Assembly (NCBI GenBank): GCA_977017645.1
Contig: OZ360223.1
Location: forward strand, 15,996,001-16,060,000
Direction of reading: 5' to 3'
From: Torpedo marmorata
Taxonomy: Eukaryota
Length of the DNA: 64,000 nt
Shown in pieces: positions 45,601 to 48,600 of this stretch. Made by a program: the position numbers and the translations under genes. The notes beneath the pieces are model-generated. The model had not been told where the DNA came from. It did no database searches and saw nothing but the letters and a program-made list of their open reading frames with translations. Position 1 is the first letter of the stretch. Each line of letters begins with the position of its first letter.

Positions 45601-48600
45601 GTGTCTCCCTAATTGTGTCCTTATCATCCTTTCTTGTCATTAGCTTATTTTTGTATTGAACTCGGTCACTCAGTTGGCATGGAATGTTAATTTGTAAACA
45701 AAGTGAATGAGGGACATGAGGCTCCATACTTTTTAAAATGAAATTTTCACTCTAGTGATCATGTACTGTTAGAATCTTTGGTGTCAAAGGGTTAGGGTTA
45801 AAGGGATGAGAAATGTCTCTCCTCGTGAGTGTCCTTTATTGAGTGAGGTGATAATCCATTGTATTTCTTCACTGGAAGTTACAAGGTCTCTGCTTGGGGT
45901 TATTGATCAAAGCTGAAACCTGCATTTTTATTCTTGTCACAATGTCTTTCCAGTACATTTTGGTCAATGCTTACAGAGTCCCCAAAAACCTTAGTTCTGA
46001 GGTTTTTGGTTTTGGTGTGCTCATGTAATTGGTGCAAATTTTTCTTTTAGCGATATCAGGAGAGAAGAAGCAGTGACAGATCAGATGGTGGTTACCATTC
46101 TGATGGCGACTACAGGGATACAGACCGGAATGAACTAAATAATGAAAAAGAGAGTAAAACTATTATGTTACGAGGACTTCCCTTATCTTCGACAGAAGAT
46201 GATGTAAGGCATTGTTAGTCTCTCCCTCAATGTTTGCATTGTGGTTATGATTATGATTCTTAAAATAAAAGCAGAAAAGTATAAATGATAGCTTGGTAGG
46301 TGAATGAAAATATGGGATTGGCAAAATCTTAAGAGGAAGTGTAATAAATGTAGACTATCTTTGTGCACAAATATTCATTGAAAGTAAATGTATTTTAGGA
46401 TGTTCTGTGGTCATTAACTGTGTTTATACATACAGATTCATACTTTAAATCATACTTTAGCTGTTTGAAAATGGTAATAAGTTGCAGCACAAAAAAAAAC
46501 CTTCATATACCTTCTCTACACGTGAGTATTAGAACATAGTAGATTTAAGTTCAGAAGACTGAGGCCAAAAGGATTTATCGCAGACTTGTTTATTTGGATA
46601 ACATGTTATCAGGGTTCATGTACTTATTACTGTATTCTGGAAGATATTTAGTGAGGAGGTGCAAAATAATTAAGCTATTAGATAAGAACATAAATCCACA
46701 GGATGTAGGAGCAGAATCAAACCATTTTGCTCTTCAAGTCTGCTCTGCCATTTAAATCATGGCTAATGTATTTTTCCCCTCAACCCAGTTCTCGTGCTTT
46801 CTCCCCATAACCTTTGACATCCTTGCTAATCAAGAACCTGTCAACCTTTGATTTAAGTGCATTCAATGATTTGGCCTCCATGGCTATCTATGGCAATGAA
46901 TTGCACAGTTTCGCCACCCTCTGCCTGGAGGAGTTTCTCCTCTGTTCTAAAAGGACATCCTTTTACTCTCAGGCTGTGTCCTTTGGTTGTAGACTTTCCC
47001 ATGACTGGAAACATTTCCACATCCACTCTATCTAGCCCCATCAATATTTGGTAGGTTTGCCCCCCCCCCACCTGCTCATCCTTCTGAACTCCAGTGAGTA
47101 CAGGTCCTCAATGCAAGATGGCAGTAATGTAATCACAATTGGAAAATAAATCGTATCTGATTAATAAGAGGGAGTGGTGTACAAAAGAGAATTAGGATGT
47201 ATTTAGCACAGTTTTGAAGTAGAAGAGTAGTAGGTGTTGCTGTAGTCTGGTATTTTTTTTACTGAAGTGCTGAGAATTATTAGGCAAAGTTTCAGTGTAT
47301 AAAAAAAAATTAAAATTTCCCCTGACTATTATATCAATTGCTTTACACTAACTTTATTTGTTGGTAAATTTCATTTGAAGGTGCACAATGCCTTTTCATG
47401 TTTCTGCTGTGGGTACACACTCAACATGCGAACCTCTTAGAACAATAGACAGAAGCTGTTTTCTGCAATATCTGGCACAGTATCTTGGAGGGCTGGCAGT
47501 TTGTCTTTACCTTCAGAGGAACTGATTCACACTAAATGTTTTGGAGCAGTGCAGTTTGATGCAGATTAAATTGGGTGCTAACATTTGAGTTAAGATTGTG
47601 ATTGTGTTTCTCTTTTATAGATTCAAACTGCTTTAGAAACTTATGATGGAGTTCAGCCAAGAGATGTGCGACTAATGAGGAGTAAAATGTCAGGTGAGAT
47701 TTGTGTTCCTCCTCCAGGTTTCTTCCCTGCTTTCCTGAACAAAAGAACACACATTTGGTTTACCCAGTGGCCGAGCGATAAGAATTAGAGCACAAGAATT
47801 TGCCATGGCTGAGGAAAGTGAGTTTAATTGCAAGCAAAATGTTACCCCTCAACTTGGCAGTGACGGCAGCAGTCGCTGTACTTTTTTATCCTTTTGATTT
47901 GTCATTGACTAAAAGTAAAAGCCCAGGATCCAGGATTAAAATACAGTCCCATGATTTAATTGCTGGTGTGAGGAAACTTGCATGATCTTTCCCAAAATAT
48001 GGTTTCCAAATTTGTTCATTTGTTAATTTTATTTTTCTTCAACATTGTACACTATTTCCACTGCATTTTTTCATGTGTTAGTGAATAGTGGTGGTATGTG
48101 ATTTTCAAAAAAATATATAATGCTGTTGAAAACTGGGTTACAGGTGGGTACTGCAGAATAAATCTCTTGTTTCCAATTTGTCATGATCTGTATGAAAGAA
48201 ACCTTTTATTGCAACTTTTGTTCTTTCTGTAGAGGTATTGTTACACCTAGTCAGAGACATTTTGCACAATTCCTTTCCTTGCCATGGCAAAGAAAAGGAC
48301 AAAGTGAGATCACACAAAAACACTGCTTCACAAAACTGTAAATGGAGACGCTTTGAAGCAGGAGGGTGACATGAGAGATTCATCTGAGAATGGCTGCTTT
48401 AAAACCCATTGACTAACACAATCCCGTCTATATCTGAATGCTGTCTCTAGGTCAAAGCCGTGGTTTCGCCTTCGTGGAGTTTAATCACTTGCAGGACGCA
48501 ACAAGATGGATGGAAGCCAATCAGGTTGCTTCATCACAAGTCTAGATTTCTTGGAGAGAAAAAATAAAAAGGATCAGATTGTCTGTATTGAAAACTGATG

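Follow-up and report, generated by a model that had tools for sequence, protein, structure and literature searches.

In Dscam1, pairings of a docking site with its selectors compete with one another. Ate1 is of the same competing-pairing type (PMC8052449), and the PCCRs catalogued in that work are segments of one gene that are complementary over at least 10 nt, pair at -15 kcal/mol or below and lie within 10 kb of each other; they are enriched over cryptic and inactive splice sites. Pairs of this type are ordinary, as hundreds of thousands are predicted in human introns, and a few have been validated. Among these, structures at exon 3b of BRD2 and exon 5b of BRD3 control poison exons, as mutagenesis and ASOs confirmed (Petrova 2024, PMC10789245).

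The splicing regulators RBM5 and RBM10 are tumour suppressors, and skipping of exon 6 followed by decay keeps their levels in check. In human, RBM10 binds introns 5 and 6 of RBM5 and promotes the skipping of RBM5 exon 6, leading to NMD; the intronic RBM10 sites are described as conserved, and the main text of that paper contains no mention of secondary structure (Sun 2017, PMC5737846). Inclusion of RBM5 exon 6 was 0.92 in HEK cells and 0.44 under RBM10 overexpression (Wang 2013, PMC3799496), and the exon figures among NMD-reactive exons, an RBM5 eCLIP peak lying no more than 200 nt away (Pervouchine 2019, PMC6547761). Spliceosomes are arrested by RBM5 once the branch point has just been recognised, and for RBM10 the same mode of docking is predicted (2026 preprint, PMC13041897). 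The cis-elements that set the level of exon 6 have so far been described only as conserved binding regions.

A preliminary description of the RBM5 locus of Torpedo marmorata, made from its letters, had proposed a long-range duplex in intron 5 as an ancient structural switch in this circuit. RBM5 presumably also has intron 5/6-retained isoforms, for which our literature search returned no source. The exon-6-skipped isoform that the description mentioned, together with its placing of intron 5 in the RBM5/RBM10 regulatory circuit, agrees with what is in print for human, where the circuit works through exon 6 skipping and NMD (PMC5737846).

Gene context and reference loci

The window analysed here is a 64-kb stretch of Torpedo marmorata DNA in which tblastn located two RBM5-like genes in tandem. 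Its origin from a cartilaginous fish is reflected in an exon of gene 1 that is 91 to 94% identical to shark and skate RBM5-like proteins. Gene 1 begins before the window and ends at 31.6 kb, so its exons 5 to 7, including intron 5, fall outside; gene 2, in which the intron 5 duplex lies, starts near 42.6 kb (Table 1). The N terminus of gene 2 is of the RBM5 type, and its identity to tetrapod RBM5 is 64 to 66%, versus 56 to 58% for gene 1. In a protein tree of 13 rows, from which 5 of 16 database proteins with short matches were left out, gene 2 fell outside the supported bony-vertebrate RBM5 clade, at the unresolved base, and its orthology thus rests on the N terminus, the tandem position and the intron blocks in common with L002 (below). 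In human, RBM6 lies next to RBM5 in tandem (PMC10445532), and from this order we infer that gene 1 fits the position of RBM6. The exon numbering used here agrees with that of human RBM5, exon 6 having 74 nt in both.

A scan with an exon 6 pattern yielded two loci in metagenome contigs and none in genome and viral contigs. One of them, L002, is a bird/crocodile-type RBM5 locus (98.7% identity to RBM5 of birds and gharial along 75 aa); the other, L001, is a teleost-type RBM10 locus (93.6% identity over 47 aa to a teleost RBM10).

Table 1. Features of RBM5 (gene 2) in the Torpedo marmorata window; L002 is the bird/crocodile-type RBM5 locus
Feature	Positions	Strand	Basis or remark
RBM5 exon 5 (73 nt, part of RRM1)	47621..47693	+	tblastn, boundaries, translation
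RBM5 intron 5, 757 nt (L002: 479 nt)	47694..48450	+	
Duplex 5' arm	47799..47818	+	starts 105 nt past 5' splice site (111 in L002)
5'-splice-site-like motif, GT at 47818, 6/7 consensus positions	47815..47823	+	sequence
Inner extension, 5' side	47820..47842	+	predicted pairing; not conserved in L002
UGCAUG hexamer inside loop	47979..47984	+	one copy within L002 loop too
Candidate cryptic exon holding entire 3' arm	48233..48303	+	AG 48231-48232, GT 48304
Inner extension, 3' side	48257..48272	+	predicted pairing; not conserved in L002
Duplex 3' arm	48273..48291	+	ends 159 nt before exon 6 (143 in L002)
10-nt block common to L002	48373..48382	+	sequence comparison
Branch-point-like motif and exon 6 acceptor	48410..48450	+	12-nt and 30-nt blocks identical to L002
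RBM5 exon 6, 74 nt; frame shifts if skipped	48451..48524	+	tblastn, boundaries
Third conserved block, intron 6	51973..51989	+	16/17 identical to L002
RBM5 exon 7	52042..52128	+	tblastn

Predicted pairing within intron 5

The two arms were found where the preliminary description had placed them, complementary, with a single bulge and a single G-U pair. In the predicted fold of 47622-48540 they form a helix of 19 bp, in which 47799-47809 pair with 48281-48291 and 47812-47818 with 48273-48279, while T47810 is bulged and G47811 forms the G-U pair with U48280 (pair probabilities 0.73 to 1.0). The duplex spans 493 nt and closes a loop of 414 nt, close to the 415 nt given before. Its predicted energy is -30.4 kcal/mol for the arm core and -43.5 kcal/mol including the inner part, and the arms paired with a probability of 1.0 in all 10 folding windows.

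Within intron 5 this is the best long-range helix, its alignment score being equalled by 6 of 500 dinucleotide shuffles and its energy by none of 150. It ranks 10th among 165 real 757-nt tiles of the window, and of six stronger repeats that were checked, four recur elsewhere in the window and two do not. The duplex does not appear among the 25 longest of the 699 pairs listed by an ungapped repeat finder. Chance complementarity without function would account for two of these results: within one species the helix stands out only at about the 1% level on alignment score, and the fold of the entire 531-nt region is not more stable than that of its shuffles (z -1.19; 14/100).

Pairing had also been proposed to continue inward from the arms. 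Of the inner helix, the part that joins 47834-47842 to 48257-48265 has good support in the Torpedo marmorata fold (pair probabilities 0.77 to 0.92); the inner helix is modestly above controls, which were as good in 20/400 and 8/400 cases. Pairing of the stretch between this part and the arms is ambiguous, with 47820-47823 against 48269-48272 favoured by the ensemble over the register proposed. In L002, the inner helix was no better than controls (106/400 and 102/400 as good), and it was rejected as a conserved feature.

Conservation of the arms

Local alignments revealed that the 5' arm is identical to L002 at 17 of 18 letters and the 3' arm at 17 of 17, matches that none of 1000 shuffles reached in either case. 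Besides the two arms, the introns 5 of the two species have no exact block of at least 12 nt in common other than those at the branch point and at the acceptor. In L002 the arms again form the best long-range helix of the intron (alignment score equalled by 5/500 shuffles, energy by 0/150), with a pairing that depends on the folding window: the probability was at least 0.76 in 7 of 10 windows and 0.26, 0.01 and 0.0 in the remaining three. According to RNAalifold, 16 arm pairs occur in both sequences, 15 of them unchanged and one passing from G-U to A-U with the pair kept; by hand, the innermost shared position is A-U in Torpedo marmorata and U-G in L002, and the following pair is lost. Nine pairs scored by RNAalifold as changed on both sides fall in the unalignable loop and were ignored. 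Since these are two RBM5 sequences only and invariant pairs are uninformative, the changes in the arms fit a structure but give no covariation evidence.

The earlier view of the duplex as ancient is upheld by this joint conservation of the arms, and on this sequence comparison the arm pair is older than the split of cartilaginous and bony vertebrates. That the same blocks were kept across this split and give the best helix in both species largely refutes chance complementarity, which we regard as very improbable indeed. Selection on the helix as an RNA structure is, in our judgement, quite probable. Moreover, neither arm has a copy in the 64-kb window beyond its partner, and Rfam gave no match at gathering score across the window. 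As no further copies occur there and the position is kept in L002, the arms do not look transposon-derived, in line with the preliminary description, and within the window they do not behave like a transposon terminal inverted repeat.

The span between the outer ends of the arms differs between the species (493 nt versus 225 nt in L002), whereas the intron left outside the duplex is near constant (264 nt versus 254 nt), so that 268 of the 278 nt of intron-length difference fall inside it; a single insertion could account for this difference.

A helix that forms but serves a role other than exon 6 choice, such as a site for dsRNA-binding or editing proteins, retention in the nucleus or pairing within an antisense transcript, is something we consider improbable. 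Antisense RNA, which we presume to exist over this region, would pair almost as well as the sense strand, which is better by only about 1.5 kcal/mol (-30.4 versus -29.1 kcal/mol in Torpedo marmorata and -28.4 versus -26.7 kcal/mol in L002). A role of this sort also gains from the reported enrichment of PCCRs for editing sites (PMC8052449). It is weakened by the position that is G-U here and the one that is U-G in L002, both of them wobble pairs in sense RNA that become mismatches in antisense RNA, and by a spacing that is conserved relative to the splice sites.

A third block in intron 6 and possible protein-binding sites

A third conserved copy of the arm core is an addition to what had been described. 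This block, in intron 6, carries the TGCCATGG core, as do both arms in intron 5, and stops 52 nt upstream of exon 7 here as in L002. Its conservation was matched by 1 of 1000 shuffles within the intron ends, and its score was reached by 4 of 40 whole-intron shuffles. The TGCCATGG 8-mer occurs four times on the + strand of the window, versus about 1.4 expected. With either arm, the third block is predicted to pair at -15.8 to -17.8 kcal/mol, versus -28 to -30 kcal/mol for the two arms together, and this pairing is no better than that of chance partners in intron 6, among which the block ranked third in three of four scans and fell below the top five in the remaining one. As in a docking/selector arrangement, the arms have an alternative partner that is conserved in sequence and position. 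Being weak and at chance level, the pairing of the third block with the arms hints at a switch and counts just as much in favour of repeated binding sites.

In the latter explanation, what is repeated would be a protein-binding site with a palindromic core, an RFX X-box in DNA or else the motif of an RNA-binding protein, and pairing would be a by-product. Three conserved blocks with one core and chance-level pairing of the third speak for it; in addition, a related motif in L001 has one perfect half-site, and the 3' arm is the sole 14-mer of the window within two mismatches of the X-box consensus used here. This consensus is close to the canonical site printed in PMC4168999, where published X-boxes keep one well-matched half-site ending in RAC. 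However, such a half-site is missing from all three blocks on either strand in both species, the arms of both deviating at its terminal position or positions, and the 5' arm has three to four mismatches to the consensus. Furthermore, six conserved cross-arm pairs fall outside the self-complementary core and are thus not explained by a repeated palindrome, and the single change within the arms keeps pairing. Binding sites as the whole explanation therefore receive little credence from us, and the RFX alternative named in the preliminary description is disfavoured by the lack of an RAC-ending half-site and by these six pairs.

Splice-like sites and human binding data

Splice-like features occur at both arms of the duplex. 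The donor-like motif at the end of the 5' arm is buried by the predicted duplex (mean unpaired probability 0.2); it is strong in Torpedo marmorata only and not in L002. The AG of the candidate cryptic exon around the 3' arm is preceded by 13 pyrimidines in 15 positions, and its donor is missing from L002. As PCCRs tend to do, the arms overlie candidate cryptic splice sites, which we counted for a clamp over them; counted against it were the lack of conservation of these sites in L002 and our estimate that 757 nt would contain a few such motifs by chance.

The UGCAUG in the loop is an RBFOX-type motif. An AG followed by GTATTG occurs in the loop of both species, in a different order relative to UGCAUG; a conserved decoy or recursive site there was kept as a lead only, in view of this order and of how common the motifs are. 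The 10-nt block pairs over the exon 6 acceptor in the L002 fold (probability 0.44 to 0.99) and is not predicted to do so in Torpedo marmorata (at most 0.03), and a conserved hairpin over the acceptor, being predicted in L002 only, was dropped. The pyrimidine tract of exon 6 is U-poor, with 6 T in 15.

Human RBM5 intron 5 had been proposed to hold blocks similar to the arms, and this was partly confirmed for the 5' arm: the human primer RBM5-CLIP-Ex5-5ss-R (PMC5737846) has, by eye, 20 of its 23 letters in common with L002, where it reaches into the inner part of the 5' arm. The human intron 5 RBM10 CLIP-PCR amplicon (103 bp) accordingly ends in the 5' arm; it overlaps the arm but is too long to show that RBM10 binds the arm as such. 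For the second RBM10 amplicon (Ex7-3ss), the two primers agree with L002 by eye at 17 of 20 and 18 of 20 letters, lie 148 nt apart there versus a stated 149 bp, and span the third block. From these primer positions, both published human RBM10 CLIP-PCR amplicons of RBM5 appear to span a copy of the core. In addition, the duplex adjoins an NMD-coupled exon, as exon 6 has 74 nt and its skipping in human is NMD-sensitive (PMC5737846).

Intron 5 of RBM10

The same intron of RBM10 had been named as a point of comparison. In the one such intron available, that of L001 (1425 nt), the RBM5 arms had no significant sequence match (117 to 610 of 1000 shuffles as good), and homology between the arms of the two genes was dropped as not significant. 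The L001 intron contains a predicted 20-bp helix of its own (positions 485-505/1391-1411, mean probability 0.97; -31.9 kcal/mol, with the sense strand 10 kcal/mol better), the 3' strand of which sits between a branch-point-like motif and the exon 6 acceptor. Judged on this one sequence, the helix is no more than a lead and is marginal against shuffles, of which 18/150 and 1/60 were as good. The best match of the RBM5 3' arm lies inside its 3' strand and is non-significant (553 to 610 of 1000). In the three-block variant described below, RBM10 might likewise place a duplex of this sort across the acceptor of its exon 6.

Proposed role in exon 6 choice

The reading that we favour, at somewhat less than an even chance, is that the arms pair as a clamp favouring exon 6 inclusion and that binding of RBM10 or RBM5 works against it. 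In the cell, the two arms would pair in the RBM5 pre-mRNA and close off the variable middle of intron 5, shortening the effective intron to about 260 nt. The clamp would hide the cryptic splice sites of Torpedo marmorata and favour the joining of exon 5 to an exon 6 that is weakly defined by its U-poor acceptor, while RBM10 or RBM5 at the 5' arm would compete with the pairing and loosen it, leading to exon 6 skipping and decay. The observations on its side are the complementarity of the arms, their joint conservation in two species, the near-constant spacing to the splice sites and the 74-nt exon 6.

The conservation evidence is the same for a duplex that is real but repressive, acting as an RNA bridge or as an aid to intron 5 retention, and in the bridge form RBM10 or RBM5 near the exon 5 donor would come to lie about 120 nt away from the branch point of exon 6. 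The arrest of spliceosomes by RBM5 after branch-point recognition, predicted likewise for RBM10 (PMC13041897), the RBM10 amplicon at the 5' arm (PMC5737846) and the RBM5 eCLIP peak near exon 6 (within 200 nt; PMC6547761) suit this explanation. However, the exon is 159 nt (143 nt in L002) from the mate arm, against the 50 nt of the bridge rule. A helix that is predicted to be stable by default, next to an exon that is mostly included, cannot be strongly repressive alone, and we rate a repressive role as rather unlikely.

A variant with three blocks, which we think unlikely, would combine both states: by default the intron 5 clamp would keep exon 6, and RBM10 or RBM5 would free one arm to pair with the third block, looping out exon 6 and directing the transcript to decay. 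Such a switch would predate the split of sharks and bony vertebrates. If it were true, a feedback loop would be read out through RNA re-pairing. Of the ancient structural switch first proposed, the age of the element and the place of the intron within the circuit have held up, and nothing shows switching.

A helix kept from cartilaginous fish to birds is a precise and mutable element, for which a fitting minigene design already exists. If the helix sets exon 6 inclusion as the clamp reading would have it, it would offer a handle for antisense oligonucleotides to raise or lower RBM5. It would also help account for the strong conservation of RBM5 introns.

Comparison with known systems

With 19 bp, -30.4 kcal/mol and a 493-nt span, the RBM5 duplex lies within the PCCR thresholds. 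Its arms are in conserved intronic sequence (two species, plus part of the 5' arm through a single human primer), and like catalogue pairs it overlaps cryptic splice-site-like motifs, with an energy far stronger than the catalogue median of -17.2 kcal/mol (PMC8052449). The four RBM5 rows in the supplement of that catalogue concern another exon, and the human arm pair may well stand in the full catalogue as a prediction. Our search, to which most subscription journals and the full PCCR tables did not belong, found no paper describing the RBM5 intron 5 duplex. The circuit of Sun 2017 (PMC5737846) concerns the same gene, exon and flanking introns, and in the passages analysed it describes neither the duplex nor the third block.

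As with BRD2 exon 3b and BRD3 exon 5b, a long-range conserved duplex lies at an NMD-linked exon of a regulatory gene, and as in that pair the paralogues may carry structures of their own, the parallel for RBM5 and RBM10 being the candidate in L001 (PMC10789245). In contrast to the BRD2 and BRD3 poison exons, RBM5 exon 6 is essential and lies outside the predicted duplex. In the RNA bridge of ENAH exon 12 and RBFOX2, the regulator's binding site lies next to one arm (PMC8052449), as it may in RBM5, where, by comparison, the mate arm is 143 to 159 nt from the exon and the RBFOX-type hexamer is inside the loop. Of the two parts of the bridge rule (PMC8052449), an RBP site within 50 nt of an arm may lie in the 103-bp human RBM10 amplicon that overlaps the 5' arm, whereas the exon is farther than 50 nt from the mate arm (159 nt; L002 143 nt). 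Nor does the duplex loop out an exon, since both arms are in intron 5; only the pairing of an arm with the third block (51973-51989) would flank exon 6. With the Dscam1/Ate1 type the locus shares a sequence that has more than one conserved possible partner, but it has no mutually exclusive exons, and its alternative partner is predicted to bind far less strongly (-16 to -18 versus -28 to -30 kcal/mol). The conserved long-range intronic duplex is a kind already known, of which the case in RBM5 intron 5 appears to be a further member.

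Loop and arms of the predicted intron 5 duplex

The loop between the two arms of the predicted RBM5 intron 5 duplex in gene 2 contains acceptor-like AG and donor-like GT pairs, with the GT directly following the AG or lying at most 6 nt beyond it, both in the window species and in a bird/crocodile-type RBM5 locus (L002), while the order of these pairs relative to the RBFOX-type UGCAUG hexamer differs between the two. The pairs could possibly represent a decoy, a recursive site, or a micro-exon. Moreover, the 3' arm was predicted to form an alternative, weak local hairpin (-10.8 kcal/mol for 48265-48312) with the purine run 3' of it, and this run showed no conservation in L002.

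A fourth copy of the core, the 8-mer common to both arms and an intron 6 block, agrees with the 5' arm over that arm's initial 10 letters, and its predicted pairing energy with the 3' arm is -17.9 kcal/mol. Chance alone would yield one copy of this kind, and the L002 sequence stops short of the corresponding region.

Features of the tandem RBM5-like genes and the comparison locus (window positions unless stated)
Feature	Positions	Location
Gene 1	1564-31631	starts before window
Gene 2	42654-63414	
Near-perfect inverted repeat	8334-8360 with 8643-8669	gene 1 intron
Near-perfect inverted repeat	18359-18452 with 18567-18661	gene 1 intron
Broken LINE-type reverse-transcriptase ORFs (several)	12766-16226, 22548-26324, 57432-59347	introns, genes 1 and 2
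AG/GT pairs	48231-48240, 48141-48149; L002 intron 205-218	loop
3' arm local hairpin (predicted)	48270-48300	intron 5, gene 2
Exon 6	48451-48524	gene 2
Exon 6 donor and 11-nt block	48525-48550	gene 2
Fourth core copy	54043-54053	intron after exon 8
Long-range 20-bp helix (predicted)	L001 intron 5 485-505 and 1391-1411	minus strand; intron at 3768-2344
AT-rich DNA	L001 3845-4292	

Exon 6 and the teleost RBM10 locus

The exon 6 donor of gene 2 looks weak, and it has the same letters in L002, as does an 11-nt block shortly 3' of it. The exon 6 peptide is 100% identical over 25 to 26 amino acids to its counterpart in skate, shark, and chimaera proteins whose remaining sequence tracks gene 1. Either very strong constraint on this exon or gene conversion between genes 1 and 2 may account for the identity.

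In a teleost-type RBM10 locus (L001), the predicted helix spans the stretch from the branch point to the exon 6 acceptor and was marginal against shuffles. This contig appears chimeric, with fish RBM10 sequence fused to AT-rich DNA that presumably resembles a bacterial methyltransferase gene.

Intronic repeats and a possible relationship to RBM6

The inverted repeats in gene 1 introns, of which no additional copy was found anywhere in the window, are probably transposon ends; broken LINE-type ORFs occur in introns of both genes. Because gene 1 appears to occupy the position of human RBM6 yet retains an RBM5-like sequence (about 56% against tetrapod RBM5 in the compared region, versus 24% overall identity between human RBM6 and RBM5), cartilaginous fish may have kept a little-diverged RBM6 precursor.
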